A program made the translations under genes and the position numbers. A stretch of DNA of 64,000 nt, taken from Chiloscyllium plagiosum. Taxonomy: Eukaryota. The notes below the pieces were generated by a model. The model saw only the letters and a list, made by a program, of their open reading frames with translations, was not told the DNA's origin and did not search any database. Shown here one piece after another: positions 2,970-59,300 of the stretch. Position 1 is the first letter of the stretch; every line of letters begins with the position of its first letter. The DNA lies in assembly GCF_004010195.1 (NCBI RefSeq), contig NC_057718.1, positions 66,990,732 through 67,054,731 of the forward strand, read 5' to 3'.

Positions 2970-3615
2970 ATGATTTGGAGGAACCGGTGTTGGACTGGGG
3001 TGGACAAAGTTAAAAATCACACAATACCAGATGATAGTCCAACAGGTTTATTTGGAAGCACTAGCTTTCAAAGCACTGCTTCTTCATCAGGTGGTTGTGA
3101 AGCAGGACCATAAGACACATAATTTATAGCTAAAGATTACAGTGTCATGCAGCTGAAATGATATATCGAACAAACCTAGATTGTTAAGTCTTTCATCTTT
3201 TAGAGTGGGTTTGCTGGTTTCGGTTCTTTAATATGTAAATCCCAGAACTTCATTTAAATCACATTCTCAAGATAATTTAAGGTTTTATAACAAAAGGAGA
3301 CATCTCAGCTCAGACAATACCTTCAAATTGTGAGTGTAGAGCCTGTCTGTATCCCAGTCTTGAGTCAGATTGGCTCTATTTCCAAAGTGGAATTTACAAA
3401 ATATTACATGAATTGACGGCCTGCAGGTTCTGCATTTTTTGAGCAAAATAGAATGTATCTGCAAATATAATTCTGCAAATACAAATTCAACCCATAAACT
3501 TATATGTATGTGCACGTGCAGGAGAGAGAGAGAGACAAAGTGAGTGTGTGCAAGCGAAAGATGACTTTGTTGGGATTGTCTATAAATGCTCATACAGTAG
3601 TGGAGATATAAGGGA
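2970..3615 (-). mobile_element. Penelope-like element 3' UTR/pseudo-LTR fragment (family A)
   Basis: Starts atgatttggaggaaccggtgttggactggggtggacaaagt, homologous to inserts at 27610 and 28107; carries a hammerhead core on the minus strand. Confidence 0.7.
3059..3093 (-). ncRNA. Minimal type I hammerhead ribozyme motif (core intact)
   Basis: Minus strand: cac-CUGAUGA-a-gaagc-agu-gcuuu-GAAA-gc-UA-gug. Stem I cac/gug, 5-bp stem II, palindromic AGCU in place of stem III. Confidence 0.7.
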
Positions 3616-5885
3616 TAGCATTAAAGGGGATTAGAGATGCATGCAATAAAGTTACAGCTTTAACCATGTGTGACTTTAATCTACACATAGTTTGGACAAA
3701 TGAAACTAGCAATAATACTGTGGAGGATTTCTAGGATAGATGTCTGATTTTTTTTAGACTAACACATTGAGGAACCAACTAGAAAATAGTTATCCTAGAC
3801 TGGGTGTTGTGCAATGGAAACAAATTCATTAACAATCTTGTTGCACAGAGTTCATTGGGGAAGAGCGACCATAAAAGACTGGAATTATTCATTAAGTTTG
3901 AGAGTGAAATGTAATCCAAAACTAGTGTCCTGAATCCAAAATAAAGGAATTCTGAGGGAATGAACTATGAGTTGGCAAAATGTATTGGGGAACCTTATTA
4001 ATAAGTTGACGGTGGGTAGCCAATAGCTAATATTTAAGGAATGTAGGTATAAATTACAATAGTCATTCATTCCTATTTGGTTCAAAAATAAAACAGGAAT
4101 GTTGCTCAACCATGGATTGCAAAAGCAATTAGGGATAATATTAGATTTGAAGAGGAGACATATAACATTGCCAGAAAAAGCATCAAGCCTTTGGACTGGA
4201 AACAGCTTAGAACTTAGCAAAAGAGGACAAAGAGGTTAAGAGGGGCAAAATAGAATATGGGAATAAACTTACAGGGGCATTAAAAATGACTGTTTAAGAT
4301 TCTATTAATATATAAAGATAAACACTCAAGTGAAGACAAATGTAAGTCCTTCATGGTCAGAAGTGGGGAAGTAGATGATCAGAACCAAAGAAATGGCAGT
4401 GATTTGAATACATATTTTGATTCTGTCATCACAAAAGAGGACACAACTAATTTCAAAATTTCCAGTGAAAAAGAGGAATTGATGAGTATTGGTATTACTA
4501 AAATGGATGTGAAAGAAATTAATGGTGTTAAAAGCTGACAAATCCTCAGGTCCTTATAATCTAAATCCCAGAGCATCAAAGGAATTGGTCCTAGAAATTT
4601 TGGATACATTGGTGGTCATCTTCTAAAATTGTATAAATTCTGGAGCAGTTCCTAGCAATGTAACTCTACTATTTAAAAAGGAAGGAGAGAAAAAAACTAC
4701 AGATCAGTTAGCGTAGCTTCAGCAGCGGGGAAAATATTAGAACTTATTATAAAAGATATGATAACAGAATATTAGGAAAGCATTAATGGGTTGGACAAAG
4801 TCAGCATGGGTTCATGAAAGGGAAGTTATGTTCAAATAATCTACTGGAGTTTTTTTGAGGATGTAATTAGGAAAATAGATAAGGGAGTATCAGTGAATAT
4901 ATTGTATTTGGATTTCGAAAGACCTTTGAAAAAATCCCACATAAAAGGCTGGTCGGCAAAATTAAAGTACACAGGATTGGGGTCAATATTAGCATGGATT
5001 GAGAATTGATTAACTGCTTGGAAACATAATTTATGTATAATATACAAAAGACTTGAATGAAGGAACCCAATGCAATGTTTCAAACTTGTTGATACCACAA
5101 AACTAGATGGGACTGAGTTGTGATGAGGATGCAAGGAAACTTCAGGATGATCCAGACAAATTGAGTATGTAGGCAACTCATGGCAGATATGGTATAATAT
5201 GGAAAATGTGGAATTATACACTTTGATATGAAAAACAGAAAGATGTAGAATTATTTAATTTGTGATATATTAGAAAATGTGATTTCACAAAGGGATCTCA
5301 GTATCCAGGCAGGTACAGCAAGCAGTTTAGGAAAGGAAATGGTATGTTGGCCTTCATTGCAAAGTGGTTTAATTCAGAAGTAGGGATTTCTTACTACAAT
5401 TATTCTGGTGCTTGGAGACAGTACTTTTGCAATATTGTGTGCAGTTTTGATACCCCTACCTAAGAGAGGTTATAGTTGTCATAGATGGAGTTCAGTACAG
5501 GTTCATTAAGCTGATACTGCAAGTGGCAGGACATGCACCACAATTAGTTTGACTGGGCTTGTGTTAATTAGCATTTAGAAAAATGGGAGGGCATCTGATT
5601 GAAACATTTAAAATTTCAACATGGCTAAACAGACTAAATGCAGGGAGGATGTTTCCCTTGGTTCAGGAGTTTCGAACCAATGGCCCCAGTCTTAAAATAG
5701 GCCAATTAAAACTGTGATGTGGAAATATTTCTTCATTCAGAGGATGGTCAATTTGAGGTATTTACCCCCACAGACGTCTATGGAAGCACTGAGTATATTT
5801 AAGAAAGATATTGATACATTTTTAGTTATTAAAGGCATCAAGGGGTATGGAAATAAAGTGGGGTATGGCATTGCGATGAAGATCA
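3616..5885 (+). mobile_element. Old, heavily mutated CR1 LINE (ORF2 endonuclease-RT to 3' end)
   Basis: Remnants such as agtcagcatgggttcatgaaagggaag (SQHGFMKG), tatttggatttcgaaagacctttga (YLDF..AFD) and terminal IKGIKGYG; many stops and frameshifts. Confidence 0.85.
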
Positions 5886-6755
5886 TGGAGAGCTATGGTG
5901 ATACAAAATTCAATTGTCAGGGAGCTGACAAGTGGTTTTTTGGCAGCAAATGAGAATCTCAAGTGGTATGTTTCCTCCCTGATGCCAGGATCAGGGATGT
6001 CTCAGAGCAGCTACAGGGTGTTCTGAAGGGATAGAGTGAACTGCAAGCAGTTGTGGTGCATGTCGGTACCAATGACATCATTTTAAAAAAAGAAATGAGG
6101 TCCTCCAGCAAGGGTTTAGAGAGTTAGGTAATACATTAAAGAAGAAGACTATTAAAATTGTAATCTCTGGATTACTTCCAGTTCCACATGCTACTGATTA
6201 TAGGAATGGGAAAATAGATCAGATGAGCATGTATCTAAAAGGGTGATGTAGGAGGAAAGCCTTTCAATTTCTGGATCACTGGGACAGCTGCTGGGATAGA
6301 TGGGACCTGTACAAGCTGGACCAGTTTTACCTGATCTGATGTGGGTCCAGTATCCTTGCTGGGAGGTTTGCTGGTACACCTGGGGAGGTTTTAAGCTGAT
6401 TTAGCAGGGAGCAGAGCAGATGTAAAGTCAGCAGCAAGATCCAATCAAATATAGAAAGACTAGCATGACAATCGACGAGGTGGAGAAGGAATTGGCAGAA
6501 TAGTGCACAGGGAGGTTCCGGAAAGCTAAAATGTATCCATTTAATGCAAGGAACTTAGCTGAGAAGGCCGATGAACTTAGATATTGATCAGCATGTGGGA
6601 GTATGATATTGTTGCAATTGCTGAGATATGGTTGAAGGAAGAACAGGACTGACTGCTCATCATTCCTAGTATCGAAGTTTCTGGCGGGATGAGAAAGAAG
6701 TAAGACAAGTGGAGCTTTGCATTATTGATAAAGGAAATGGTCACTGCAGTAATGA
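5886..6755 (+). mobile_element. CR1 ORF1 (esterase) remnant and start of ORF2; probable host element continuing at ~10435, 11228-12918 and 15800-16350
   Basis: catgtcggtaccaatgac (HVGTND), gtaatctctggattacttcca (VISGLLP), then gatattgttgcaattgctgagatatggttg (DIVAIAEIWL). Confidence 0.75.
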
Positions 6756-6779
6756 CCTTGCTGGTCACCAGGAGATAGA

Positions 6780-9700
6780 CGACCAGATATATAAGCCAAT
6801 CACAGGGAGGTAGTAACACCTCAGGTACAAGAAAAAGGCAGTTGGGTTACAGTCAGGGGATGGAAAGGGAACCAGCAGGCAGTGCAGGGAACCCCTGCGG
6901 ACATTCCCCTCAATAACAAGTATATCTTTTTGGATACTGTTTGGGGGGAAAAATTATCAGGGTTAAGCCAAAGGATAAATGGTCTCTGGCACAGGGTCTA
7001 TCCCGGTTGTTGAGAAGGGAAGGGGAGAGATGAGCAGAGCAGTAATCATTGGGGACTTCATAGTTAGGGGGACAGATAGGCGGTTCTATGGGAACAAGGG
7101 AGCCCCATGGTTAGTGTGTTTTCTCCCAGGTGCCAGGGGTCGTGATGTCCCAGATTGTGTTTTCAGGATCCTTGCAGAGGAGGGGGAGCAGCTCCAAGTC
7201 ATGGCCCACATAGGCACTAACGTCATAGGTAGGAAAAGGATTGGGGACTTAAGGCAGAACTTCAGGGAGCTAGGGTGGAAGCTTAGTGCTAGAACAAACA
7301 GAGTTGTTATCTCTGGTTTGTTGCCCGTGCCACGTGCTAGTGAGGCAAGGAATAGGGAGCGAGAGGAGTTGGAGTTGAATACATGGCTACTGGGATGGTG
7401 CAGGAGGGAGGGTTTCGGATTCTTGGATAATTGGGGCTCATTCTGGGGTAGGTGGGACCTCTACAAAGAGGATGGTCTACACCTGAATCGGGGGGGGGGG
7501 ATTTGCTAATGCTCTTCAGGAAGGTTTAAACAACTCAGTAGAGGGATGGGGATCTACATTGTAGTTCCAGTATCGAGGAGGTTGAGAGTAGTGAGGTTAG
7601 AAATGAGATTTCAAGATCGCAAGTGTTCACCGGCAAGCAGGAAGGTGATTTGAAATGTGTCTGTTTCAATGCCAGGAGTATCTAGAATAAGATGAGTGAA
7701 CTTGCACCTGGGACTTCGATGTTGTGACCATTTTGGAGACATGGATGGAGCAGGGACATGAATGGTTGTTGCATGTTCCGGGATTTAGATGTTTCATTAA
7801 GAACAGAGAAAATGATAATAGAGGGGGAAGTGTGCCATTGTTAGTCAAGGCCAGTATTATGGTAGCAGAAAGGACATTTGATGAGGACTTATCTACTGAT
7901 GTAGTATGGGCTGAGGTTAGAAACAGGAAGGGAGAGGTCACCCTGAGGGGAGTTTTCTATAGGCTTCCAAATAGTTCCAGAGATGGAGAGGAAAGGATAG
8001 CAAAGATAATTCTGGATAGGAGTGAGAGTAACAGGATAGTTGTTATGGGGTCTTTAACTTTCCAAATGTTGACTGGAAATACTATAGTTTGAGTACTTTA
8101 GATGGGTAGTTTTTGACCAATGTGTCGGATGGTTTCCTGACATAATACATAGACAAGCCAAGAAGGAGTGAGGCCACATTGGATTTGGTATTGGGCAAAG
8201 AACCTGGCCAGGTGTTAGATTTAGAGGTAGGTGAGCACTTTGGTGATAGTGACCACAAATTGGTTATGTTTACTTTAGCGATGGAAAGGGATATGGATAT
8301 ACCACAGGGCAAGAGTGATTGCTCAGGGAAAGGCAATTAGGCAAGATTTAGGATGCATAGGATGGGAAAGGAAATGCTCAAGATGGGCACAATTGAAATG
8401 TGAAGCATATTCAAGGAACAGCTACTGGGGGTCCTTGATAAGTATGTACCTGTCAGGCCGGGAGGAAGTTGTCGAGCAAGGGAGCTATGATGTACTAAAG
8501 AAGTTGAATCTCTTGTCAAGGGGAAGATGAAGGCTTATGTTAGGATGAGACATGAAGGGTCAATTAGGGTGCTTGAGATTTACATGTTCGCCAGGCAAGA
8601 CCTAAAGAGAGAGCTAAGAAGAGCCAGGAGGGGACATGAGAAGTTGTTGGCAGATAGGATCAAGAAAAACCCTAAAGCTTTCTATAGATATATCAGGAAT
8701 AAAAGAATGACTAGAGTAAGATTAGAGCCAATCAATGATAGTAATTGAAAGTTGTGCATGGAATCCAAGGAGATGCGGGAAGCACTAAATGAATACTTTT
8801 CGTCAGTATTCACATTGAAAAAGACAATGCTGTCAAAAATACTAAGATAAGGGCTACTAGACTAGATAGGATTGAAATTCACAAGGAGGAGGTGTTTGCA
8901 ATTATGGAAGGTGTGAAAATAGGTAAGTCCCCTGGGCCGGATGGGATTTATCCTCAGATTCTTTGGGAAGCCACGGAGGAGATTGCAGTGCCTTTGGCTT
9001 TGATTTTATGTTGTCATTGTCTACAGGAATAGTGCCAGAAGACTGGAGGATAGCAAATGTTGTCCCCTTGTTCAAGAAAGGGAGTAGCGACAAACCTGAT
9101 AATTATAGACCAGTGAGCTTTACTTTGGTTGTAGGTAAAATGTTGGAAAAGATTATAAGAGATAGGATTTATAATCATCTAGAGAGGAATAAGTTGATTA
9201 AGGATAGTCAACACAGTTTTGTGAAGGGTAGGTCATGCCTCATAAACCTTATTGAGTTCTTTGAGAAGGTGACCGAACAGATGGATGAGGGTAAAGCAGT
9301 TGATGTGGTGTGTATGGATTTCAGTAAGGCATTTGATAAGGTTTGGAACATGAGATTGAGGGTGATTTAGTGGTTTCGATCAGAAATTGGCTAGATAAAA
9401 GAAGACAGAGTGATTGATGGGAAATGTTCATCCTGGAGTTCAGTTAACAGTGGTCTACCGCAAGGATCTGTTTTGGGGCCACTGCTGTTTCTCATTTTTA
9501 TAAATGACCTTGATGAGGGTGTAGAAGGATGGGTTAGTACATTTGTGGATGATACAAAGGTTGGTGGAGTTGTGGATAGTGCTGAAGGATGTTGCAGGTT
9601 GCAGAGGGGCATAGATAGCTGCAGAGCTGGGCTGAGAGGTGGCAAATGGAGTTTAATGCAGAAAAATGTGAGGTGATTCACTTTGGAAGGAGCAACAAGA

Positions 9701-11225: not shown

Positions 11226-11227
11226 AT

Positions 11228-12918: not shown

Positions 12919-14883
12919 TGGACCTTACTACATATTTACTAATCCCCCCACCTCCAGACTTCAAACTTCTTTGACAAAACTCCCAACCTCTCTCTGAGGA
13001 CCCCTTCTCCCACCTCCAGTCTTCCTCCTCCATTTGGTCACCTTCCCACCAGCCTTGTACCTGCCCCAGACCTCTTCATTGTAGATTGCCAATGTGAGAT
13101 CGGATGCCTCAAATTCTCCACACCCCTCACCCATTCCAAACTCACCTCCTCTGAACATGCAGCACTCCACTCGTTCCGTACCAACCCTCGATTCACCATC
13201 AAACCCGCTGACAAAGGCGGGGGGGTGGTAGTCTGGAGAATGGACCTCTATGTCGCAGAGGCCAAACGCCAACTTTCCAACATCACATCCTACCTTCCCC
13301 TTACCCGCGACCCAACCATAACTCATCATGCCCTGTTAATGCCGTCATTACCTCCCGTGATTCCTTCCTCCACTGCATAGTCTCCTAGCCCCGCATTACC
13401 CAGTTCTACCTGCTCCCTAAGATCCGCAAACCCAACTACCCAGCCAACCCATTGTCACGGCCTGCTCCTGCTCCACTGAACTCATCTCATTCTACCTCGA
13501 CTCTATCCTCTCCCCCTTAGTTCAGGCACTTCCCATCTACATCTGTGACACCAAACACGCCCTCCATCTCTTCAGTAACTTCCAGTTCCCCGGCCCCAGT
13601 GCTTTATTTTCATTATGGTTGTGCATTCCTTATATATATCCATACCCCACAAGGATGGCTTCCAGACCCTCCACTTCTTCCTCTCCATCCAGTCCCCCTC
13701 CACCAATGCCATCCTCTCCCTCACCGTACTGATCCTCACCCTCAACAACTTTTTCTTTAACTTGTCGCATTTCCTCCAAATCCAGGGGGTAGCCATGGGC
13801 ACCCGGATGGGTCCCAGATATGTGTGCCTCTTTGTTGGCTATGTTGAACAGTCCGCCTTCAGTATCTACACAGGCACCCTGCCCCAACTCTTCTGCCATT
13901 ACATTACGCTGCAGCAGTGCAGTGTCCTGCACCCAGGCTGAACTGGAGCAGTTTGTCGACTTCACCCACAACTTCCACCCCACCCTCAAGTTTACTTGGT
14001 CCATCTCGGACACCTCCCTCCCCTTTCTTGACCTCTCTATTTCCATGTCTGGTGACAGTCTCCAGACAGAAATTTACTACAAACCCACAGACTCTCATAA
14101 CTACCTGGACTGCACCTCTTCCCACCCAGCATCCTGCGAGAACTCCATCCCATTCTCCCAATTCCTCTGCCTCCGCCGCAACTGCTCACATGAGGAGACA
14201 TTCTACTCGCAAGCCTCCCAAATGTTCACCTATTTCGAACAAGAGCTTTTCCTCCCTTTGTCATCTAGACATCCCTCCACCGTACCACCTCCATTCCCCG
14301 TTCCACTGCTCTAAACCCCTCTCCCAATACAATAAAGACAGAGTCCCCCTTGTTCTCACCTACCACCCCACTGGTTTCCACATCCAGTGCACCATCGTTA
14401 AACACTTCTGCCAACTCCAACTAGACCCTACCACCAAGTACATCTTCCCCTCCCCATCCATCTCTCCTTCTGCAAGGATCGTTCCCTTTGACAGTCCTTG
14501 GTTTGCACCACCCTCCACACCAATCCCCCCTGAACTCCCAGGTACCTTTCTTTGTAACTGCAAAAGATGAAAAACCTGCTGGTACACCACCCCCTTCAAC
14601 TCATTCAGGGTTCCAAACAGTCCTTTCAGGTGCCTCTCTTCCAACCTAGTTTACTGCGTCAGGTGCTCCCGATGTGGTCTTCTCTACATCAGGGAGACCA
14701 AACGTAAACTTAAGGAATGGTTCACTGAGCATCCCAGCCAAGCCTGCAGGAGCCGACTGGACCTTCCAGTCACCGCCCATTTTAATTCCCCTTCCCACTC
14801 CCTTTCTGACATGACCATTCTTGGTCTCCTCCATAGTCACAACAAACACCACACTGCAAATTGGAGGAGCAACACCTCACCTT

Positions 14884-15475
14884 TAGTAGAGGGATCAAGT
14901 TTTGGAACCATGAGGTCATGCTGCAGCTGTACAAAACTCTGATGTGGCCGCACTTGGCGTATTGCATGCAGGTCTGTTCACCACAGTATAGGAATGATGT
15001 GGAAGCTTTGGAAAGGGTTCAGAGGAGATTTACAAGGATGTTGCCTGGCATGGAGGGAAAATCTTATGAGGAAAGATTGAGTGTCTTGAGGCTGTTTTCA
15101 TTAAGGTTGAGAGGTGACTTAATTGAGACATATCAGATAATCGGAGGGTTAGCTTGGATACACAGTGAGAGTCTTTTTCCTCAGATGGTGACGGCTAGAA
15201 CGAGGAGGCATAGCTTCAAATTGAGGGGTGATAGGTATAAGACAGATGTCAGAGGTAATTTCTTTACTGAGAGAATAGTAGGGGCATAGAATGCACTGCC
15301 TGCAACAGTTGTAGACTCGCCAATTTTACAGGCATTTAAATTGTCATTGGATAGGCATATGGATGAGAATGGAATAGTGTAGATTAGATAGGATTCAGAT
15401 TGGTTTCACAGGGTGGCACAACAGCGAGGGCTGAAAGGCCTGTACTGCGCTGTAATGTTCTATGTTCTATGTTCT
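14884..15475 (+). mobile_element. CR1 3' fragment inserted into the PLE
   Basis: ORF 14861-15289 (LYKTLMWPHLAYC..ERVQRRFTRMLPG), (gttctat)n tail; acctt on both sides (14879-14883, 15476-15480) as a possible short TSD. Confidence 0.9.
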
Positions 15476-15706
15476 ACCTTCCTCCTGGGCAGCCTACAGC
15501 CTGGAGGACTCAATTTCGAGTTCTCTAATTTCAAATAACTTCCCTTCCCAGCCCCTCCCCCTCCCTTCCACTCCTCCCTGCCACCAACCGGATTCATTCC
15601 CCATTGATCAACCAGGTCGTATCCTCTACCTGTGTTCACCTATCCCCACTTCACCATGCTGCCCCCGTCACCCCCTTTATCTATAGCTCCCCCTACACCC
15701 ATCCCC

Positions 15707-15741
15707 AGTCCTGAAGAAGAGTAACACCCAAAACATCGACG
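15707..15741 (+). ncRNA. Degenerate hammerhead motif in the PLE terminal repeat
   Basis: gtc-CTGAAGA-a-gagtaacaccc-AAAA-catc-gac; G of GAAA and the ACGT palindrome lost, consistent with CpG decay; stem I gtc/gac retained. Confidence 0.5.
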
Positions 15742-15799
15742 TCTCTGCTTCCTGATGCTGTCTGGCTTGCTTTATTCTTCCAACCTCCTGCCTGTCTGC

Positions 15800-16350
15800 T
15801 AGAACAGAATACAGAAGCAAGGAAGTCTTGTTGCAACTTTGTTAAACATCGGTTAGGCCACAGATGGAATACTGTGAGCAGTTCTGGTTGCCATACTATT
15901 AGAGGGACATAATTGCATTGGAGAACGTGCAGAGGAGATTAATCAAGATGTTGTCTGGGAGACAAGTCTCAGTTATGAAGAGAGTCTGGATAGATTGGGT
16001 TTGTTTTCCTTGGAGCAGAAGAGGCTGAGGAGGGATCTGATTGAGGTATACATACTTATGAGAGGTACAGACAGAGTAGATTGTGTGAATCTTTTCCCCA
16101 TGGCAAGCTCATCTAAAACCAGTGTGTATAAATTTAAGGTGAGGGACCAATAATTTAGAGGAAATCTGAGACAGAAGTTTCTCGTCTAGAGCATGTTACT
16201 AAAATATGGAATATGCTGTCTGTGAGGTTGGTGGTGACAGATACTCTTGCAACATTTAGGAAGCATTTAGTTGAGTACTTAAAATGTCAGGACATACCAG
16301 GCTATGGACCAAATAGACATAATGGGCTGAAAGGCCTGTTTCTATGCTGT
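15800..16350 (+). mobile_element. CR1 3' part (continuation of 11228-12918)
   Basis: gaatacagaagcaaggaagtc (EYRSKEV) continues the frame broken at AFISQ; ends gggctgaaaggcctgtttctatgctg. Confidence 0.85.
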
Positions 16351-17404: not shown

Positions 17405-17975
17405 GACAGAGTGTGGCAGCAGAAAAAACATAGCAAGTCAGGCAGCATCAGAAGAGCAGGAGAATCAACATTTCGGGCAGGACCCTTCATCAGGACTGGA
17501 GAACGGAAAGGGGGCTGAGAAATAAATAGGGGGAGGGAGAGGGGCTGGCAGAAAGGTCATTGGCATGGCAATAGGTGGATGCATGAAGAAGGTGATTGTG
17601 ATAGGTCGATGGGTAGGATGGAGCGGATAGGTAGGAAGGACTATGAACAGATAGGCCAGGTCAAGAGGGTGATGTTGAGTCGGCTGGGTTTGGCTGTGTG
17701 GTTGTAGTCTCCCGAGGCAGGAGATGAGATGTTCTTCCTCCACTTTGCGAGTGGACTTGTTTACGTTGTGGAGGAGGCCCAGATAGACATATCATCGGGG
17801 AGTTGAAATGGATGGCCACCATGGTGGGGTTGGTGGTGCATATGGACTAGAGATGTTTTCTGAAGGTTGCGCTCAATCGCTCCAATGTAGATGAGGCCAC
17901 ATTCAGAGCAACAGATGCAGTAAAAGAGGTTCGAAGATATACAAGTAATATTCTGCCGGTCAATCCAGTCTCTGA
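17405..17975 (-). mobile_element. Penelope-like element 3' fragment (GIY-YIG + terminal repeat, family B)
   Basis: ORF 17761-18003 TCISSNLFYCICCSECGLIYIG; MEEEHLISCLGRLQP; terminal repeat with hammerhead at 17464-17497. Confidence 0.88.
17464..17497 (-). ncRNA. Hammerhead motif, CpG-decayed stem III
   Basis: Minus strand agtc-CTGATGA-a-ggg-tcctg-ccc-GAAA-tg-tt-gat; consensus would be GAAAcgUC. Confidence 0.55.
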
Positions 17976-18999
17976 GATTTACGTGCATATTTTCAAACTT
18001 CATTTACAACAGTAAACTTACAACAGCCTGTTTTGATGTTCTTTAGTGTTATCTTGACCAGTCAGGTGGTGCTATCCAGTAAGTGCCAACCAGGGTACCC
18101 TGTTTTGTAGTCAGCTATAGCACATGTTACAAAAATGTGTATATGTGTGAAGATGATAATGAACAAGGCCCTGCAGAGGAGTCCAGTAACTATGCATTGA
18201 AGAGAAACTGCTGATACCATCTGAAGTGTCATGGGCATGCTAACTTAATCAAGGACTTAACTGAGTGGCTCCTGGCACTCTGAACTTGAACCACTAATAC
18301 ATGAGGTGGTACTTAATGAAGGTGATATGTGTCTCACCTGCTGACTGGAGAGCTGACGAGAGTCCAATGTCAAGACCCGAAAGCTAATGCCTGCCACATT
18401 TAAGTGCTGTGCTTTACTGGATAGTGGTTGATATTTCCCAAAGTGAAGGAGCCCCAGGGGTGAAATCCCACCTACTGACAGCTTCAGCTTCTCTGAGTCT
18501 GGTAGCTCTTTATTGACTGGAGTACCACTGGGGATGTCTATGGACTCAAGCACAGGTGAGTGATGGGAAAAGGTGGGTGATGGGACAGAGGTAGGTTGGA
18601 GGGTCTATCCCAGCAAGAGCAAGGGCTCAAATTCAGAAAAGTGCTCCCTTTCTTCCTGAAGCTTATTTCCTTGATCAAATTCTGAATGCCTTTGAATGAG
18701 GAATCTCCAATCGCCCTCTACTGCAAGAAGTGGACTAATGTTTGCTTTTCAGGGTTTACGATGAGTTAACTGCCCAATGCTAGGAGAATACCAGTGACAA
18801 CATAATGAAGTCCTTAAATAGATATAAGTTGCTCATTTAAGGACCTCAATTGACTTTTATAGTTGCAGCTTTGGTCTTTTTAGCCCCTTTGGCAATTTTG
18901 ATTCCTTGTTAATGTTAAGCCTTGTGCACCTCAGGATTCTAAGTCCTCTTAGTCATAACCTCAGCAAGAGAGACATCAGTAATAGCTTGTTGAAAATTC

Positions 19000-21879: not shown

Positions 21880-23270
21880 AAGTGGGAAATCATGTCTCAC
21901 AAACTTGATTGAGTTTTTTGAAGAAGTAACAAAGAAGATTGATGAGGGCAGAGCAGTAGATGTGATCTATATGGACTTCAGTAAGACGTTCGACAAGGTT
22001 CCCAATGGAGACTGATTAGCAAGGTTAGATCTCATGGAATACAGGGAGAACTAGCCATTTGGATACAGAACTGGCTCAAAGGTAGAAGACAGAGGGTGGT
22101 GGTGGAGGGTTGTTTTTCAGACTGGAGGCCTGTGACTAGTGGAGTGCCACAGGATCTGTGCTGGGCCCTCTATTTTTTTGTCATTTACATAAATGATTTG
22201 GATGCGAGCATAAGAGGTACAGTTAGTAAGTTTGCAGATGACACCAAAATTGGAGGTGTAGTGGACAGCGAAGAGGGTTACCTCAGATTACAACAGGATC
22301 TTGACCAGATGAGCCAATGGGCTNNNNNNNNNNNNNNNNNNNNNNNNNNNNNNNNNNNNNNNNNNNNNNNNNNNNNNNNNNNNNNNNNNNNNNNNNNNNN
22401 NNNNNNNNNNNNNNNNNNNNNNNNNNNNNNNNNNNNNNNNNNNNNNNNNNNNNNNNNNNNNNNNNNNNNNNNNNNNNNNNNNNNNNNNNNNNNNNNNNNN
22501 NNNNNNNNNNNNNNNNNNNNNNNNNNNNNNNNNNNNNNNNNNNNNNNNNNNNNNNNNNNNNNNNNNNNNNNNNNNNNNNNNNNNNNNNNNNNNNNNNNNN
22601 NNNNNNNNNNNNNNNNNNNNNNNNNNNNNNNNNNNNNNNNNNNNNNNNNNNNNNNNNNNNNNNNNNNNNNNNNNNNNNNNNNNNNNNNNNNNNNNNNNNN
22701 NNNNNNNNNNNNNNNNNNNNNNNNNNNNNNNNNNNNNNNNNNNNNNNNNNNNNNNNNNNNNNNNNNNNNNNNNNNNNNNNNNNNNNNNNNNNNNNNNNNN
22801 NNNNNNNNNNNNNNNNNNNNNNNNNNNNNNNNNNNNNNNNNNNNNNNNNNNNNNNNNNNNNNNNNNNNNNNNNNNNNNNNNNNNNNNNNNNNNNNNNNNN
22901 NNNNNNNNNNNNNNNNNNNNNNNNNNNNNNNNNNNNNNNNNNNNNNNNNNNNNNNNNNNNNNNNNNNNNNNNNNNNNNNNNNNNNNNNNNNNNNNNNNNN
23001 NNNNNNNNNNNNNNNNNNNNNNNNNNNNNNNNNNNNNNNNNNNNNNNNNNNNNNNNNNNNNNNNNNNCTTTTCACGCAGACGGTGGTACGTGTATGGAAT
23101 GAGCTGCCAGAGGATGTGGTGGAGGCTGGTACAATTGCAATATTTAAGAGGCATTTGGATGAGTATATGAATAGGAAAGGTTTGGAGGGATATGGTCCGG
23201 GTGCTGGCAGGTGGGACTAGATTGGGTTGGGATATCTGGTCAGCATGGACGAGTTGGACCGAAGGGTCCT
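21880..23270 (+). mobile_element. Relatively young CR1 3' half spanning an assembly gap
   Basis: YMDFSKTFDKVP, WRPVTSGVPQ, FADDTKIGG before the gap; FTQTVVRVWNELP...GRWD* and 3' UTR after it. Confidence 0.92.
22324..23067. other. Assembly gap (744 N)
   Basis: Continuous N run inside a CR1 copy. Confidence 0.99.
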
Positions 23271-23284
23271 GGACCACCCTAGCA

Positions 23285-27094: not shown

Positions 27095-27230
27095 GGTTCC
27101 TCCTCCTCATTGTAGGGTATGGAACAATCACCACCTTCCTCTTCTTGCAGCATTATGCCTCTCTGTAAAACAATTTGTGCAAAGCACAGCAGACTACCAT
27201 TCTCAACACCCTTGCTACTGCTTATTCAAC
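27095..27230 (-). pseudogene. Second HARBI1-like transposase C-terminal fossil
   Basis: Minus strand E*AVARVLRMVVCCALHK, then after a frameshift LQRGIMLQEEEGG; matches the RV.RIVV.CCALHN..LQRG + acidic tail pattern. Confidence 0.65.
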
Positions 27231-27560: not shown

Positions 27561-27609
27561 ATCTCTATCCAGAATGTCCATTTACTAGTGAACAAGGCTC
27601 TTATAATCT

Positions 27610-42979: not shown

Positions 42980-43750
42980 TGACTTTTTCTTATTCATTCA
43001 TGAGATATTGATATTACTAGTTAGGACAGCGTTTATTACCCATCCCTAGTTATTCTTGAGAAGGTGATGGTGAGCTGCCTGAGTCTACCTTCCTGAACCA
43101 CTACTGTCTGTGTCTTGTAGGTAGACCCACAATGTCATCATTCAGGGAACTATAGAAATGTCAGTCAAAGCACAGGGCCATTTTCAGTCGCAGATATCCT
43201 CACAAGTTCCACACTCGACTCACCACATAAACACAAATGTTACAAGAGCAGGTCAGAGGCTAGGAGTACTGCAGCGAGTAATTCACCTCCTGACTCCGCA
43301 AAGCCTGTCCATCATCTACAAGGACAAGTCAGGAGTGTGATGGAATACTCCCCACTTGCCCAGGTGGGTGCAGCCCCAAAAACACTCAAGAAGCTTGACA
43401 CCATCCCAGACAAAGCAGCCTACTTGATTGCTATTACATCCACAAAAATCCACTCCCTCCACCAATGACACTGAGTCGCAGCTATGTGTACTATTTCCAA
43501 GATGCACTGCAGAAATTCACCAAAGTTCCTCAGACAGCACCTTCCAAACCCATGACTAGACCATCTAGAAGGACAAGGGCAGCAGATGCATGGGGACACT
43601 ACCACCTTCAACTTTCTCTCCAAGCCACTCACCATCCTGACTTGGAAATATATCGCGGTTTCTTCATTATCACTGCATCAAAATCCTGATATTCCTTCTC
43701 TAAGGGTTTTGTGGATCAACCCACAGCAGGTGGACTGCATCAGTTCAAGA
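42980..43750. mobile_element. Fragments of the second CR1/L2-group LINE family (minus tail ~42980-43150; plus 3' part 43215-43750)
   Basis: RAGQRLGVLQRVIHLLTPQSLSIIYK, agcttgacaccatcccagacaaagcagcc; homologous to 955-1860. Confidence 0.75.
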
Positions 43751-45059
43751 ATTTCCAGTTTTATCTCCTTTTCATACCTTCACTTTTACATCTCTATTTG
43801 TTCTTTATCACCATTATCACACCCTCACAATCTATTCAATTTGTTCCTTCTCCCCTCTGCCAACAGCAAGAAAGCCACTATTTCCCACCTCCTTTCAGAC
43901 TCAAAATGTTAACTGTTTCTTTCTCCACAGATTCTGCCAGACCTTCTGAGTTTCTCCACAATTTTCTTATTCCTATTTCAGATTTCAGCATCCACAGTAT
44001 TTTGTCTTTCTTCATTATTTCTTTCTTTATTCTTCCTTTTGCGCATTAAAAGTAATCATAATTAACTATTGAACACTTTAATATCTGCTTCTCCCACACT
44101 CAGGAATGATAACATTGTCTGTTTCTATTAGATGTTAAAAAAAGTAGTGTTCATTCAGAAAGAGTTCAAACATCACATGGTGCTGTGTAAAATTAGCTTC
44201 TGAGGCTTTCTTCACAGTCAGGAATTAATGAGAACTGTGCAATTAGTTCTGCTATAGTCATTATTAATCCGAGAGGCATCCTGACCCAAACCTTTTTTAC
44301 CTAACTATCATTTTTCAGGGTCACTTGGTCCAAAATGTTGACTCTGATTTCTCTCCACCTGCAGAGCTTTTCCAGCAAATTACATTTTTGTTGCTGATTT
44401 ACAGCATCTGCAGTTCTTTCGGTCTTGACACAGTTGAGACTTCAGCATCTGGAATTTCATATACGCTGCTAAATGAGTATGTGATGCTTTAGTAAGCTTC
44501 ACCACAATTAAATTTTGGTAGTTTGCAGTGACTCTGTGCCACTCTGTGCATTCACAAATGAAATAGCTGAGGCCATACAATTATCCTTAATCCTTTGGTG
44601 CCAGCAACAGTGATGTGCTCATCAGATGTGCTACTTTGTCAAAGCGGGATGGAGTACCAAGGTGAAAGTATCGGAACTGGTGAAGGGTGCAGGAGAAAGC
44701 CTTATCAGTGCATTCTCTGAGGGATTTGTGCTTTTTTCCTCAGAGGAGAGGAGATGGCCTTGGCTGGAGGAGCTGACTTCTTAAGCGTGTAATTAGCTGC
44801 TGGACCCTGGAGAAGAGAAGAATGGGAATCAGTTGTGGAATAGGGATAGAAATATGAGTAAGTTATGTATATGTTCACAACGTTGATAAGTTGAGGACAG
44901 TGAAATACCTCCCATTGAAGCTACCTTAGTTGCCTAAATATGAAGGTCTCAGAATCTCCACATCAGTGGTATTGATCTTCTGCTAATACAAGGTTTTAAT
45001 CCTCATACAGGGTGAATGATGAATTTCAGTCACCTTGCCAGCCATCTTTGCCTTTTAAG

Positions 45060-46472: not shown

Positions 46473-47219
46473 TTAGTAACTGGCAGAGGATTTATGACTG
46501 GGATATATAGGGAAATAATAGTGGTGTTGTACGACAAGGGCCAAAAGTATTGCCATTTATTTGCCTTGTTCCTCCTGCTTCTAGATGATGCAGAAGCTTT
46601 TAGCGTGGACGTCAATCCAAGGTATTGTGTTTGTGGCCACTAATTTACATCTTATTCTGGAACAATGGCATTCAGGATGCACAGAAAGATAAAACAACCA
46701 CATGTAAAGTGAAAGCAGTGACATTTTTTAAAAATGCAAAATAACATGTGTATGTTATTAAGGTCACTTTGTATAACCAAAGTGACCTTCATAGGCTTTC
46801 TTTATTCTCTCCCTCCAACTATGATTTAGTGCAGTCCTTGGTTTTGCAGTTAGGCTGGAGGGCACCTACTTAGCAGTAGAGCCAATGGCCTGAAAGTTAG
46901 GTCGGGGCAGCCTCAGGATACCTGTGTTTTGAGATATCAGAAAAGCTCAGTACCTTCTTGCCAAATGTAAGTTGATCCTTTTCGGTGTGAACTTCTAAGG
47001 GTCAAAGAGGATTAGGGAGGGTGGAAGTGGATGGCCTAACCATCTCTGGAGATTTCTATGTTGGCTGCATGTAGTTCTGCCTCCAGCAGGTTGCCTCCTG
47101 CATCGCCCTGAATCTTTGTAAAGAAAAGGCAGATGAGAGCTCCTAGATTGCATATCAGGTTCCCTGTCCCCTTGTTGCCATGCTTTCAGTCCTAAAACAC
47201 AATGGCTGAGGTGATGGAG

Positions 47220-47333
47220 GGCTCAGGCCCGAAACATCAATTTTCCTACTCCTCAGATGCTGCCTGACCTGCTGTGCTTTTCCAGCAACACACTCTCAAC
47301 TCTGATCTCCTGCATCTGCAGACCTCACTGTCT
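47220..47333 (+). mobile_element. Family-B PLE mini-insert with a 15-bp TSD
   Basis: gggctcaggcccgaaacatcaattttcctactcctcagatgctgcc...ctcctgcatctgcagacctcac flanked by gctgaggtgatggag at 47205-47219 and 47334-47348. Confidence 0.85.
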
Positions 47334-49249
47334 GCTGAGGTGATGGAGATGTGTGCACTTCTTTAGCAGACCCTGAGAGTGATGGACCTGGCTCCACCAA
47401 CTTGTGCATGCAGGCAGCAAGGTATAGAATGACTTGTTGCTGCACCTTCTGGGGAGTAAGGGCCATTACATCTCCATACTCATCTGCCCATTCCCATACC
47501 CATTTCCTGTTCCTTCCTGTTCAAATGGACAAAATCCCGGACTGTTGACACCACAGGCTACTCTCCTCTGAGCAGATGCCTGGTCTGGCAGCTCTCTGAG
47601 TGCCAGAGACCTGGAGCTTTTCTTCCTTGTCCAGCTGTGGAGTTGTCATAATGTGGTTCTCACTGGATTGTGATCCCATAATTTCTAAGCCTAACATTCC
47701 CACCGCAGTTTTAATATCTGACCTTGTGGGGTGTTCAGGAGGCAACTTTGTTGATGTTTCCTCTGAAAGCCTTGGTACTCTCATTCTCAGAGTTCAAGAA
47801 GGTTGCTTCTGTGGTCTTTTCACTGCTGAAACAGTAGACATGCTGGGTGGTACCTGCAAGACCCATGAAAGAGAAAGCATTGTGGTCAATGATTAGAAGT
47901 GGTGTACAATGAATGACATTCTCTGACTGTTACTGTGAGAGTTGCAGTGGAATAGAGGTTGGTACTCAGCTGACAGGACATCTATACTTCAGAATCTCCC
48001 TAGGAGCAATCCTGGACTACTCCTGAAAATTCTATAATTCTGTTTTTTTTAGTTCACTCATGGAATAACAGTGTTGCTCTTGAGAAGGTGATGATGCACT
48101 GCCTTCATTTGTCACAGTCCATGTGAAGTAGGTATAGATCCACAATGCCCTTAAAGAGGGAGTTCCAGGATCTTGACCCAACAACAGTGAAGGAACAGCA
48201 ATTATCAGGATGGTGAATAACTTAGATGGAAACTTGCAAATGGCAGCATTCCAATATATGTGCTGTCCTTGTCCTTCTAGCTGGAAGTGGTTGTGAGTTT
48301 GGAAGGAGCTGTCTAAGAATATTTAGCAACTTTCTGTAGTTTATTTTGTGAATGGTGCACACTGCAGCTGCTTAGCATTGGTGGTGGAGTGTCTGAATGT
48401 TTGTGGATTTGACCTCAATCAAGTGGGCTGCTTTGTCCTGGATACTGTAAAGCTTATTGACTGTTGTTGGAACTTCAGTTATCTCAGCAAATGAACTGTA
48501 TTCCATCACATTCTTGATTGTGCCTTGTAAATGATGGACAGGCTTTAGGGAGTTAAGAGGTGCGTAATTCATTGCAGTATTCCTAGCCTCTTAGTGGCTC
48601 TTGTAGCTACATTATTTCTGTGGTTGGTCCAGTTGAGTTTCTGGTCAATGGTAACCCCAAGATGTAGATAGTGGTGTATTCAGTAATGGTAATGCTATTG
48701 AATGTCCCGGTAGTGATCAGGTCATCTCTTATTGGAGATGGTAATTGCCTGGCCTGTGCGTGGTGTGAATGTTGCCTCACCTCTAGAATTGATCTCCTTT
48801 GGTCATATTTGAGCATAGATTCTAATGAGGTAAAGAGCTAAGTTGCTATTGCAGAGGTCAAACTGGATGTCAGTGGGCAGGTTATTGGTTGAGCAGGGGT
48901 TGCTTGACACCTTCGATTACTTTGCTGATGATTGAGGGTAGACTGATTGGATAGTAATTGGCCAGGTCGGATTTGTCCTGCTTTTTGTGTACAGAATATA
49001 CTTGGCCATTTTGTTGGGTAGATACCAGTGTTGTATGTGGCAAGGGGTGCAGCTCAATGTAGAGCACAAGACTAAGCACTATTACTGGAATGTTGTCAGG
49101 GCCTACAACTGTTGCAGTATCCAGTGCTTTCAACCATTTCTTGATATCACTTGGAGTGAATGAAAAAGCTGAAGACTGACATCTGTGATGCTTGTAGTCT
49201 CTGAAGGAGCCTGAGATATATCATATATTCACCTTCAAAAACAAAACCT

Positions 49250-50462
49250 ATGGACAAACCAATGGAACACCATGGGATTTCCGCTATTAGGATTATTAGC
49301 AGAGGCAGTAATGCAGAGACTCGAACAACAGCTCTGACTACCATCCAACCCAAACTTTTGGTCTGCTACATGGATGATACCTTTGTCAAACAAAACAAAT
49401 TAGAGGAAACCTTCAAGACCATCAACAATACCTTTACTGGCATAAAATTCACTAAAGTGGAGGAAAACAACAACACACTGCCATTCCTAGATGTCACATT
49501 AGAGTGAACAGCCAATGGGGAACTTCAAATCAGCATCTACAGGAAAACAACACATACGGACCAAATACTGAATTCCGGAAGCAATCATCCCAACATTCAC
49601 AAATTAAGCTGCATTAGAACATTATTTCAACGAGCCACCACACAGTCCAGCACAGAGGAACTACGGAGAGCAGAGGAAAATCACCTATACAGTGTATTCA
49701 AAAAGAACTGGTACCCAATGAACACAGCCTGCCAATTTCTCAGCAACAAACCCAAACAAGCAGACAAAATGCATCCAGAAACCCTGGCCACTCTCCCCTA
49801 CATCAAAGACATCTTGGAAATGACTGCCAGACTACTCAGACCTCTTGGCATCATCATAGTCTACAAATCCACTAACACACTAAAACAGCAGCTAATGAAC
49901 TTGAAAGACCCTATACAGACAACAAGCAAAACTAATGTCATTTACAAAATACCTTGTAAGAACTGTAACAAACACTACATTGGAGAAACAGGTAAAAAAC
50001 TCGCCACCAGAATACATGAACATCAACTAGCCACAACAAGACCTGATCCACTCTCACTAGTATTTTTACAAATAGATGAGGAAGGACATCACTTCGACTG
50101 GGACAACGCATCCATCCTAGTACAAGCCAAACAGAGACAGGCATGAGAATTCCTACAAGCATGGCATTCCAACCAGAACTCTACCAACAAGCACATTGAC
50201 TCGGATCCCATTTACCATCCCCTGAGAAAAAGAACCGGAAATGACAACACCACAGGAAATGACATCACCACAGGAAATGAATTCAACCCAAGGAAACCTA
50301 GACACATAAATAAAAAGCGGGCCATACCAACACTGCTTCACCGTAGGCTCACTGATGATGTTGTCTAGTATGGTGATGAAATGTCTGAAAACAAACCTTC
50401 CAACTCAATGAGCAAACTTACATCCAGAACAACAATCTGAGCTACAAATCTCCTCAAAACTT
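49250..50462 (+). mobile_element. Penelope-like element (Poseidon/Penelope-type), 5'-truncated
   Basis: PMEHHGISA, CYMDDTFV..IKFTKVEENNNTLPFLDV (RT), TLPYIK, NVIYKIPCKNCNKHYIGETGKKLATRIHEH (GIY-YIG); no Cys linker. Confidence 0.92.
50349..50388 (+). ncRNA. Hammerhead motif in the PLE 3' repeat
   Basis: tca-CTGATGA-t-gttgtc-tagtat-ggtgat-GAAA-tg-TC-tga; stem I tca/tga; stem II degenerate. Confidence 0.6.
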
Positions 50463-55560: not shown

Positions 55561-55561
55561 A

Positions 55562-57750: not shown

Positions 57751-57751
57751 A

Positions 57752-59220
57752 CCATGGTTGCCTCATTCTCTGCTGAGTATGTTTCCTCTTCCTTGGGATG
57801 AATTTCTGAAATGCCTCCCATATTACCCCCAAAAACTCCTGCCATTGCTGCTCTACCATCTTCCTTGCTAGGCTTCCCTTCCAATTAATTCTGGTCTGGC
57901 CCTCCCTCATATCGTTGTAGTTACTTTTACTCAATCGTATTAGCGTTGCATTAGATTCCAGCTTTTCCCTCTGAAACTGTTGGGTGAATTATCATATTAT
58001 GGTCAGTGCCCACTGATGTATATCCTTGGATATTTACTTCCCAGCATTGGTACACTTGAAGCCACATCTGTGATATCCACAGCATTGCATCGATCATTCT
58101 GCTATAATACTCATTTCGTTAATGCGAATTCGCTGTAACGTGATTGGTGAATTGGGGGCACTGTTTTGAAAGTGTGAACTTTTAAAACGTGTGTTGGCTG
58201 TAATGTGATTACATCACCAACACTTCAAACACTGTTTCTAAAGTGTGAATTTTCTACAATGCAGGGTTGCATAAGAAAGCAACCGTTGTGTTACCTGACA
58301 ATTTCAATCTGCAATACAAGTACATTTACCTTGTTTTGTATACTATGTGTGTTTAAATACAATGCCCTCAAACCTGCATTGATTGCCCTTTCCCATGGTT
58401 GTACCCTTATCTGCTGTGTTTGTTGACCCTTTCCGTACTCTTTGTCCTGTTACTTGCTCTTGAAATTTGGATAACCTCTATTTAGCCCTCCCTCCACTTT
58501 AACTTTTTCCATAATGTTCCATGCAACTGAACCCCTTTCCCCCAAATATTTAATTTAAAGCCCAATCCACAGCCCAGTTTAGGAAATTTACCAGGACTTT
58601 GATCCCAGCATGATTCAGGTGGAGTCTGTCCCATCAGAACAACTTCCTCCATCCCCAATACTGATGCCAATGTTCCATGAATTCAAACCTGTTTCTCCTA
58701 CACCAATCATGGAGTTATATGCTTACCTCTTTAATCATGTTAATCCTGTGCCAATTTGCTCATGGCTCAGGTAGTAATCCAAAGAACTTTTTTGGTTCTG
58801 CTTTTTAATTTAGCCCCTAGCTGCTCACATTCCCTCCGCAGAACCTCTTTCCTCTCTCAATGTATATTGCTGGCACCTATCTGGACCACAACAATTGAAT
58901 CTTTCCCATCCGACTCCAAGTTCCTCTGCAACCCTGAATGCAGAACCCAAACATCCTTTGGGACTCCAGAGAACAGTCTATATTCCCCCGACCATACTAT
59001 CCCTAATTACAACTATTATTCTGATTACTCCCCCCTCTTGAATGTCTCCCTGTACCACAATGCTATGGTCAGTTTGCTCATCCTCCCTATAGGCCCTGCT
59101 CTCAACTGCACAGAGAGCAACAACCTCAAACCTGCTAGACCAGCTCCAGACTGAGGGTCCTTCAGCACTGCCTTCCAGATCCCTCAACTGCCTCACTGGC
59201 CATCACACCCTCTTGTACCT
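57752..59220 (-). mobile_element. CR1 of the same family in opposite orientation, 3'-truncated
   Basis: Minus strand EQQWQEFLGVIWEAFQKFIPRKRKHTQQRMRQPW and ORF1 IVVIRDSMVGG. Confidence 0.85.
58092..58292. mobile_element. Tigger-like MITE related to 25169-25386 (opposite orientation)
   Basis: gatcattctgctataatac...gcgaattcgctgtaacgtgattggtgaattggg...cactgtttctaaagtgtgaa. Confidence 0.65.
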
Positions 59221-59229
59221 GAACACTGA

Positions 59230-59300
59230 TTCCTGAAGAAGGGCTTATGTTCCCTGGATGCTGCCTGACCTGCTGCGCTGTTCCAGCAACACATTTTCAG
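59230..59300 (+). mobile_element. Internally deleted family-B PLE mini-insert
   Basis: ttcctgaagaagggcttatg|ttccctggatgctgcctgacctgctgcgctgttccagc; cactga on both sides (59224-59229, 59301-59306). Confidence 0.7.

Follow-up and report, generated by a model that had tools for sequence, protein, structure and literature searches.

Probable fossil minimal hammerhead motifs of PLE pseudo-LTRs in a 64-kb window of the Chiloscyllium plagiosum genome

The stretch of Chiloscyllium plagiosum DNA analyzed here (64,000 nucleotides of NC_057718.1, positions 66,990,732 to 67,054,731; "the window") carries 11 minimal type I hammerhead sites, which we interpret, with a probability of about 0.86, as fossils from the pseudo-LTRs (pLTRs) of Penelope-like elements (PLEs) that persist as solo and mostly dead passengers. 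The class has been known since 2014, when minimal hammerheads were described in the pLTRs of metazoan PLEs (Cervera & De la Pena 2014, PMC4209133), and it is now found in another vertebrate genome; the accessible part of that paper names no cartilaginous fish. As found, the copies are of little consequence, and motif counts overstate the ribozyme load.

An earlier note on this DNA had claimed these 11 sites as minimal hammerheads of the PLE type in several families, and both the sites and their class were borne out, with three families (A, B, and C) distinguished. Their C3 positions (sign denotes strand) are 3090-, 15711+, 17493-, 27720+, 28186+, 28344-, 29063+, 40881-, 47211+, 50352+, and 59233+. 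The segments follow type I order around the core typical of PLE minimal hammerheads (C3 U4 G5 A6 G8 A9, G12 A13 A14 A15.1, U16.1 H17), and all 11 invariant core positions together with H17 are kept in 4 of the 11 sites (3090-, 17493-, 28344-, and 50352+), such that complete cores are represented in all three families. The other seven are broken: G12A, at a CpG, is the core lesion at 15711, 27720, and 29063; 28186 has A15.1G and a broken stem II; 40881 has G8U and G12C; and 59233 has lost the 3' strand of stem II, GAAA, and UH. At 47220 the CUGANGA-like letters (C3 at 47211) belong to a duplicated target site (15-bp TSD), so that copy starts inside stem II. An extra nucleotide between 9 and 10.1 is present in all 10 copies dissected, and the closing pair of stem II, G10.1-C11.1, is G-C in six of them and G-U or G-T, a CpG-decay product, in the other four (3090, 28186, 40881, and 50352). 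Stem III consists of the palindrome 15.1-16.1, which reads AGCU at 3090 and ACGU at 28344 and has elsewhere decayed to AUGU or ACAU; among genomic contigs, GC is the family A majority here (95 to 96% of X1 depth at 27745-27746). Two additional partial relics absent from the earlier note lie on the plus strand at 43895-43990 (a related subfamily that starts inside stem II; nhmmer E 0.002 at ~43897) and at 44317-44417 (a weak match, E 0.13, that starts right after CUGANGA).

The three families have only the core in common. Their stem I pairs (CAC/GUG, GUC/GAU or GAC, and UCA/UGA) differ yet all pair fully, and stem II is unlike among A, B, and C; this compensatory change was read position by position, the families being out of register in MAFFT.

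Most of the sites belong to family B, whose structure is clearest where a coding relic is retained. A putative Neptune-type PLE relic at 13200-15800 (+) has a DKG motif at 13204, RT pieces, a decayed Cys linker, a GIY-YIG motif at 14646, and a pLTR at its end; it is split by a CR1 fragment (14882-15361), matches Atlas PF26215 clusters (0.96), and carries a dead hammerhead at 15707-15741 (+) with G12A, a stem II mismatch, and a lost palindrome. A putative Neptune-type 3' fragment with pLTR at 17407-18003 (-), with a GIY-YIG motif at 17928, shares 44% identity over 36 aa with the 15711 element (E 3e-7), and its hammerhead at 17464-17497 (-; H17 at 17467) has a complete core, 4 bp in each of stems I and II, a GUU triplet, and AUGU in place of the palindrome. 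The third putative Neptune-type relic (40797-42003, -), whose GIY-YIG frame spans 41187-41564, resembles the 15711 element over 65 aa (46% identity, E 2e-17). Its 5' end carries an inverted tail, a 14-bp TSD flanks the relic (40783 and 42004), and its hammerhead at 40851-40884 is dead. The remaining family B copies are solo fragments. That at 28257-28349 (-) interrupts the tail of the 28186 copy and has a 12-bp TSD (28245 and 28350), and its hammerhead (28313-28348) has a complete core, ACGU, GUC, and an A-C mismatch in stem II, the 5' strand of stem I having been lost through truncation; position 28334 is C in 94% of depth. The fragment at 29063-29195 (+) begins at C3 and is dead, with no stem I; that at 47220-47333 (+) has its TSD at 47205 and 47334 and no CUGANGA of its own; and that at 59230-59300 (+), in which an internal deletion removed GAAA and UH, has a possible 6-bp TSD.

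Family C is represented by a putative Penelope/Poseidon-type PLE relic at 49205-50450 (+) with YMDD at 49367, a thumb, a GIY-YIG motif at 49937, no Cys linker, and a pLTR behind these. It matches Atlas PF26215 and PF01541 clusters (0.96), and its PF01541 match, the sole Pfam GIY-YIG match, lies below the gathering score (E 8e-4). The hammerhead at 50349-50388 (+; H17 at 50385) has a complete core, a stem I of 3 bp, a stem II of 6 bp including four G-U pairs, AUGU, and GUC.

In family A, a pLTR fragment at 2986-3160 (-) encloses the hammerhead at 3059-3093 (-; H17 at 3062), which has a complete core, a 3-bp stem I, a 5-bp stem II including G10.1-U11.1, palindromic AGCU, and a CUA triplet; the fragment also has AATAAA (3052-3047), a GU-rich downstream element, and a tail, and its upstream letters resemble the family consensus from loose ends in the sequencing data. 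An insertion at 27614-27801 (+) combines an inverted tail (~27614-27677) with a direct pLTR piece from 27680, a dead hammerhead (27717-27751, G12A), ATTAAA at 27758-27763, and a 14-bp TSD (27600 and 27802), and a subfamily copy at 28103-28256 (+) has an inverted tail and a dead hammerhead at 28183-28217.

The earlier note had placed every motif in PLE repeats. This stands for the four sites of families B and C that lie directly downstream of RT/GIY-YIG relics on the same strand, all of them broken, and for four more that are short, 5'-truncated homologues; the three family A sites are provisionally assigned to PLEs by architecture only, and no RT plus GIY-YIG ORF for this family was found in the window or near the 2986-3160 fragment. 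A CX2-5CxxC linker precedes GIY-YIG in Neptune PLEs and is missing in Poseidon; decayed Cys linkers are present in the 15711 and 40881 elements and absent from the 50352 element, and the clade assignments are tentative. TSDs of 12 to 15 bp surround four copies and inverted 5' tails are present in three, which is the published PLE layout; no TSD of at least 8 bp was found at 3090, 43897, 44317, or 59233, and 29063 has only an A-rich 8-mer. None of the five tandem-repeat rows in the window spans a hammerhead, and we rejected a non-LTR retrozyme reading, which calls for tandem units that each carry one.

Within family B the core is conserved no better than its flanks, an outcome that the earlier note had named as one that would refute its reading. 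Across six copies, mismatches number 3/55 in the core and 21/271 in the flanks (Fisher p 0.78), or 1/50 and 10/222 outside CpGs (p 0.70), in a comparison of few copies and low power in which the core has the nominally lower rate (5.5% versus 7.7%). Equal decay points to neutral change after insertion rather than to something other than a hammerhead, and the informative conservation is that between families. Copies would seem to decay neutrally once inserted, fastest at CpGs, which are C11.1-G12 and also the stem III CG of families B and C. This pattern is seen in the window, and with these CpGs a copy loses its general base or the palindrome for dimer pairing.

Folding predictions, made with nearest-neighbor models, which take no account of core and tertiary contacts and cannot be relied on for hammerheads, suggest that no copy folds credibly in context. 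With 40 to 100 nt of flanks, P(stem II) does not exceed 0.08 in any of the four core-complete copies. Their best folder, 17464-17497, reaches 0.82 to 0.94 for stems I and II only in isolation, falling to at most 0.01 with flanks, and 50349-50388 has a P(stem II) of 0.01. The copy that the earlier note called best, 3059-3093, appears to be a poor one: in addition to its G10.1-U11.1 wobble and CUA triplet, it is predicted to prefer an alternative hairpin, with P(stem II) of 0.02 alone and 0.00 with flanks, and its palindrome matches that of no other core-complete copy on the minus strand. In each of the 10 pairings, double-hammerhead folds lie 9 to 28 kcal/mol above the minimum for the dimer, and 10,851 nt separate the sole compatible same-strand pair.

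About 120,000 contigs match the 2.4 kb at 26.9-29.3 kb of the window, which supports at least 10^4 family copies genome-wide; contig depths were not summed into a copy number. The very large ribozyme load proposed earlier therefore holds for the abundance of the families but is a load of motifs rather than of working ribozymes, since core residues are lost in 7 of the 11 sites. With at least 10^4 copies, pairing in trans between separate transcripts is possible. RNA was assessed in run X21, the single informative library, read to 2% and over 26.9-29.3 kb only. No reads came from the unique DNA of this interval, and no start or end pile-up was found at its cut sites, with 19 of 30 bins having no depth.

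The motifs might be chance look-alikes in repeats other than PLEs, a reading that we consider almost certainly wrong. A Rfam covariance-model search of the window gave five matches at E<=10, none of them a hammerhead, although we infer that this failure is expected because the motifs lack a stem III; fold z-scores (-1.3 to +1.1) do not stand out, and the window shows no family A ORF. However, a strict descriptor, modelled on the published one but composed after the motifs had been seen, gave three matches versus a mean of 0.0 and a maximum of 0 in 30 dinucleotide shuffles. Allowing one stem II mismatch and a stem I of at least 2 bp gave four (shuffle mean, 0.07), one core and one stem II mismatch gave six (mean, 0.1), and two core mismatches gave eight (mean, 3.75 in 8 shuffles). 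One of the six, 60479+, was not in the earlier list and is probably chance. One core in three otherwise unrelated families, with compensatory stems and in the expected place behind GIY-YIG frames, already contradicts chance for families B and C. Other candidate matches were set aside: an Rfam match to SNORD19 sits within a TSD-bounded PLE copy and was therefore rejected, the sole match in a PDB sequence search (E 0.11) was dismissed as chance, and seven metagenome matches were 21- to 25-nt chance hits without family homology. No copies were found in viral contigs or prokaryote genomes.

That intact copies, 3059-3093 above all, work as ribozymes and cut transcripts running through this locus, as the earlier note suggested, we regard as highly improbable. 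Four complete cores, the fold of 17493- in isolation, and the AGCU of 3090-, which on paper allows a trans homodimer (stem III 4 bp, stem I 3+3 bp), speak for it, but the misfolding predicted above, the lack of RNA depth over unique DNA at 26.9-29.3 kb, and the inactivity of published monomers leave it unsupported, as does the finding of no host-gene Pfam domain in 195 open frames (192 non-CR1 frames of at least 60 aa and 3 CR1 controls), a scan blind to exons shorter than 60-aa frames. We would expect no measurable cutting of host RNA by the copies at this locus. Distinctly unlikely is a different role, in which the pLTRs of family A serve as scattered 3'-end cassettes and occasional cleavage, through a trans-dimer or PLE protein, would detach the poly(A) tail. 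The hexamer lies 10 nt past the scissile bond, which means that a transcript that ends there includes the hammerhead, and a hexamer with a GU-rich element is present in two of the three family A copies of the window. In X21, family A RNAs from other loci are polyadenylated ~30 nt beyond an uncut hammerhead: among the loose ends listed, 534 reads with poly(A) lie behind 27775 and 694 behind 27778, reads in the family A bin favor one strand (1498 versus 235), and depth holds at 1389 to 1571 over 27732-27746. Against this, 99% of the reads continue into unlike sequence, and the reads may stem from transcripts of the elements or from a handful of genes, the poly(A) ends among those listed may partly be genomic A-tails at some copies, the hammerhead is uncut in these reads, and there is no sign of selection or regulation. 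The uncut reads are no measure of the cut fraction, because poly(A)-primed reads miss 30-nt 3' cleavage products. Very unlikely in turn is the broader proposal that this high-copy repeat serves as a trans-activated RNA decay switch, removing tails at many transcript ends with the help of a second copy or PLE protein. If family A ends were cleavable it would matter, since an abundant retroelement would control host RNA stability; the one lead worth pursuing is the family A poly(A) signal, not cleavage.

The fossil reading agrees closely with what the accessible text of the 2014 report describes (PMC4209133): type I order with a CUGANGA and GAAA-NN-UH core and an extra nucleotide between 9 and 10.1, a G10.1-C11.1 pair (unmutated), a palindromic 15.2-16.2, a short stem I, a pLTR position behind Neptune- and Poseidon-type ORFs, mostly solo copies in several families per genome, and opposite-strand neighbors a few hundred bases apart (here 28186+ and 28344-). 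In contrast to the 7 to 8 bp given there for Schistosoma families, stem II is 4 to 6 bp here, and abundance seems above the ~4,000 motifs of coelacanth and 9,000 of Xenopus (PMC4209133, same text). Minimal monomers are inactive and dimers weak in the literature, with one of nine Xenopus dimers cleaving. In Anolis carolinensis, the Poseidon_Ac hammerhead is inactive without protein and RNA-seq ends are absent from its cut site (Frangieh et al. 2024, PMC11167929); our copies resemble it in that absence, in lying near a pLTR/ORF junction, and in having a downstream tail where reverse transcription starts, but Poseidon_Ac is intact and was assayed for protein-assisted cleavage, whereas the copies here are broken relics known from sequence. 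Animal non-LTR retrozymes, reported in one chondrichthyan genome (bioRxiv 10.64898/2026.07.22.740005), are likewise pLTR-derived with type I hammerheads, but they form tandem arrays with a hammerhead per unit. The mammalian Clec2 3'UTR hammerhead (PMC6765202) offers a precedent for the cassette arrangement in geometry only: in family A RNAs, too, a poly(A) signal in use follows the scissile bond. The Clec2 ribozyme is split, confined to a single locus, and assayed, whereas the family A hammerhead is minimal, belongs to a repeat of high copy number, and is seen uncut.

Judging from other PLEs, the motif in active source elements would have been under selection and most likely acted as a dimer, joined through the 4-nt palindrome A15.1-N-N-U16.1, that cleaved tandem element transcripts; PLE protein may have assisted besides or instead of dimer pairing. 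Reverse transcription would start in the tail ~80 to 110 nt downstream, with priming as in the literature, and would usually stop early, so that short pieces with the hammerhead are the most frequent insertions. Truncation, TSDs, and inverted tails are seen directly in the window, and the short copies that start inside the hammerhead could bear on the in vivo role of PLE hammerheads. The four insertions at 27.6-29.2 kb are all shared with a relative that is ~4% diverged.

All 11 minimal type I hammerhead motifs listed by the earlier note are present in the window, and two further partial relics lie at about 43897 and 44317 (+). A minimal-hammerhead descriptor, composed after the motifs had been seen, returned three strict matches (3090-, 17493-, and 50352+, each named by the window position of C3 and the strand), whereas 30 dinucleotide shuffles gave none. 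With a single mismatch tolerated in stem II there were four matches, adding 28344-, versus a shuffle mean of 0.07, while two core mismatches yielded eight versus a mean of 3.75 across eight shuffles, where chance dominates. An Rfam search of the window recovered no hammerhead match. Read position by position, the whole core is kept in 4 of the 11 sites; the defects include G12A (three sites), A15.1G (one site), and G8U together with G12C (one site), and the accessible text of PMC6155905 describes G12 as the general base and G8 as the general acid. The 59233+ copy has lost GAAA and UH, and the 47220+ copy has no CUGANGA of its own, those letters belonging to the duplicated target. The target-site duplication (TSD) there, within 47205-47228 (+), resembles the missing 5' core sequence, which suggests microhomology at the 5' junction.

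The motifs fall into family A (3090-, 27720+, and 28186+), family B (15711+, 17493-, 28344-, 29063+, 40881-, 47220+, and 59233+), and family C (50352+). BLAST searches with the seeds of one family retrieve no copies of the others, and between-family profile matches are weak and limited to the core. The letters of stems I and II differ from family to family yet pair within each, the pattern that selection acting on the source elements leaves behind. Families B and C are linked to Penelope-like elements (PLEs), with same-strand PLE frames upstream of four sites: 13200-14880 (+) before 15711+, with DKG, RT pieces, GIY-YIG, and Atlas clusters of PF26215 (0.96), in an element that also holds an inserted CR1 piece (14882-15361); 17764-18003 (-) before 17493-; 41063-41863 (-) before 40881-; and 49205-50146 (+) before 50352+, with a Pfam GIY-YIG hit under the gathering score (E 8e-4) and both PF26215 and PF01541 in its Atlas clusters (0.96). 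Because the three family B relics match one another (E to 2e-17) and two of them carry a decayed Cys linker, family B elements appear Neptune-like, and family C, whose relic has no linker, appears Poseidon-like; this is a tree-free assignment by the linker criterion (bioRxiv 10.1101/2021.04.23.441226, accessible part). No open reading frame was found for family A in the window, and its layout, with a TSD-bounded insertion and inverted 5' tails, argues that it too is a PLE. In both long family A copies, TATAAAT lies about 40 nt upstream of C3 (27680-27686 [+] and about 3128-3122 [-]) and could be the promoter of the pseudo-LTR (pLTR).

The copies are truncated insertions, bounded by TSDs of 14 bp (family A, 27614-27801), 12 bp (family B, 28257-28349), 14 bp (family B, 40797-42003), and 15 bp (family B, 47220-47333); the other five of the nine copies searched had no convincing TSD. 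Inverted 5' tails, described for PLE insertions in the available portion of PMC3846280, occur at 27614, 28103, and about 41955. An Rfam SNORD19 match at 41900-41976 (+) (36.5 bits versus a gathering score of 35, with a broken C box) is probably spurious, as it lies within the 40797-42003 copy and overlaps its inverted tail. At 28103-28361 the insertions are nested, a family A copy having received a family B fragment in its tail; the two motifs are 158 nt apart on opposite strands and thus cannot share one RNA. All six short B-type copies (28349-, 29063+, 47220+, 59230+, ~43897+, and ~44317+) start between about -5 and +17 nt relative to C3 and none at the cut site or in the upstream pLTR, while the three remaining copies extend into the ORF. 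In this small sample from the window, the clustering possibly marks a point where reverse transcriptase stalls on stem II or where an RNA begins. A pyrimidine tract with AG ends 2 nt (15708+ and 17496-), 5 nt (50346+), or 8 nt (40890-) before C3, resembling, by sequence alone, the 3' end of the D. virilis Penelope intron at helix I (PMC4209133, accessible part).

The proposal that intact copies could cut transcripts running through this locus finds no support. Among the four core-complete copies, only 17493- adopts the hammerhead fold with 6-nt flanks (P 0.82 to 0.94), and it unfolds once the flanks reach 40 to 100 nt; its triplet is GUU, a poor NUH triplet, and its AUGU is non-palindromic. 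The 3090- copy (3059-3093), singled out by the earlier note as the best, does not hold that rank: in its minimum fold the 5' strand of stem II pairs with the 3' flank (P[stem II] 0.02), and neither it nor 50352+ (P[stem II] 0.01) has a same-strand partner with compatible palindrome and stem I among the core-complete copies. The 28344- copy has lost stem I, and its P(stem II) does not exceed 0.09. The sole compatible same-strand pair, 17493-/28344-, is 10,851 nt apart, and folding as a double hammerhead costs 9 to 28 kcal/mol relative to the dimer minimum in each of the 10 pairings. Core and tertiary contacts are left out of these energies, which serve only as a guide. In the accessible parts of published work, a minimal hammerhead from Schistosoma did not cleave as a monomer and cleaved at a low level as a dimer (PMC4209133); the Poseidon motif of Anolis required the PLE protein for cleavage, was not needed for insertion in vitro, and had no RNA-seq reads ending at its site (PMC11167929); and one of nine Xenopus dimers cleaved (bioRxiv 10.64898/2026.07.22.740005). 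From this literature, cleavage in source elements would need a dimer or the PLE protein, and reverse transcription would prime in the tail.

After insertion the copies would be neutral and inactive, with decay led by CpG, a pattern evident in these copies; the window is vertebrate-type DNA with a CpG observed/expected ratio of 0.21. Across six of the seven family B copies (15711+ was omitted as a divergent subfamily), mismatches affect 3 of 55 core and 21 of 271 tail positions (p 0.78), or 1 of 50 and 10 of 222 outside CpG columns (p 0.70). The comparison, proposed in the earlier note as a potential refutation of the hammerhead reading, bears on decay after insertion and gives no sign of constraint within family B, with low power, a nominally lower core rate, and a tail count inflated by 17493-, which belongs to another subfamily.

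The predicted genome-wide load held in number more than in integrity. At 80% likeness, 119,782 contigs from a genomic run (X1) and 126,047 from a relative (X19) matched 26901-29300; depth was about 5 in unique bins, reached as much as 5.0 million on family B and 1.5 million on family A, and is not equivalent to copy number. Allowing for up to 31-fold overcounting from unitig overlap, we infer some 3x10^4 family B copies or more; together with more than 1,200 contigs that depart at a single position into dissimilar flanks, this supports at least 10^4 motifs, although 7 of the 11 cores in the window are incomplete. Extrapolating from 13 relics per 64 kb gives a higher load, from a selected window. 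In the relative, orthologous contigs (80 differences over 2,037 bases) extend into each of the four insertions within 26901-29300, so these arose before the two lineages, now about 4% diverged, had split.

RNA evidence came from 2% of one run (X21) compared with 26901-29300, a segment that excludes 3059-3093. Every one of the 5,899 matching reads fell on a bin that touches a repeat copy, depth was zero in 19 of 30 bins, and 99% of reads continued into unlike sequence; we therefore find no evidence in this run of transcription of the segment, and read starts or ends pile up nowhere along it. In family A, a poly(A) hexamer lies 10 nt past the scissile bond and is accompanied by a GU-rich element (27758-27778 [+] and 3052-3032 [-]). 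Poly(A) follows 27775 in 534 reads and 27778 in 694 (1,228 in total), 12 to 15 nt past the hexamer (27758-27763) and 27 to 30 nt past the scissile position (27748). With a strand bias of 1498 versus 235 and depth unbroken across the hammerhead (1389 at 27732 and 1571 at 27745), these ends indicate that family A copies elsewhere terminate polyadenylated RNAs holding an uncut motif; genomic A-tails may contribute, and poly(A)-ending reads are blind to cut 3' pieces. Since 3090- retains AATAAA and the GU-rich element, a minus-strand transcript through it would more likely be prematurely polyadenylated than cleaved. The partly accessible literature, including PMC2377424 and PMC3846280, gave no account of pLTR poly(A) signals beside a PLE hammerhead; subscription papers were mostly outside the search, so novelty is unproven. 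Only two leads emerge, this putative poly(A) cassette and the clustering of 5' junctions.

Elsewhere in the window, which has a single N gap (22324-23067), its own CR1-type frames match about 21 kb (RVT_1, endonuclease, and esterase domains). A frame at 6979-7509 (+) with an esterase-like Lipase_GDSL_2 domain (E 3e-6) probably corresponds to ORF1 in a long relic of CR1. A 299-nt direct duplication (59435-59733 and 60107-60405; 99% identity, 672-nt spacing) is either a recent event or an assembly artifact, and another repeat family with RT-like fragments occurs at 1243-1355, 43213-43552, and 48294-48637.
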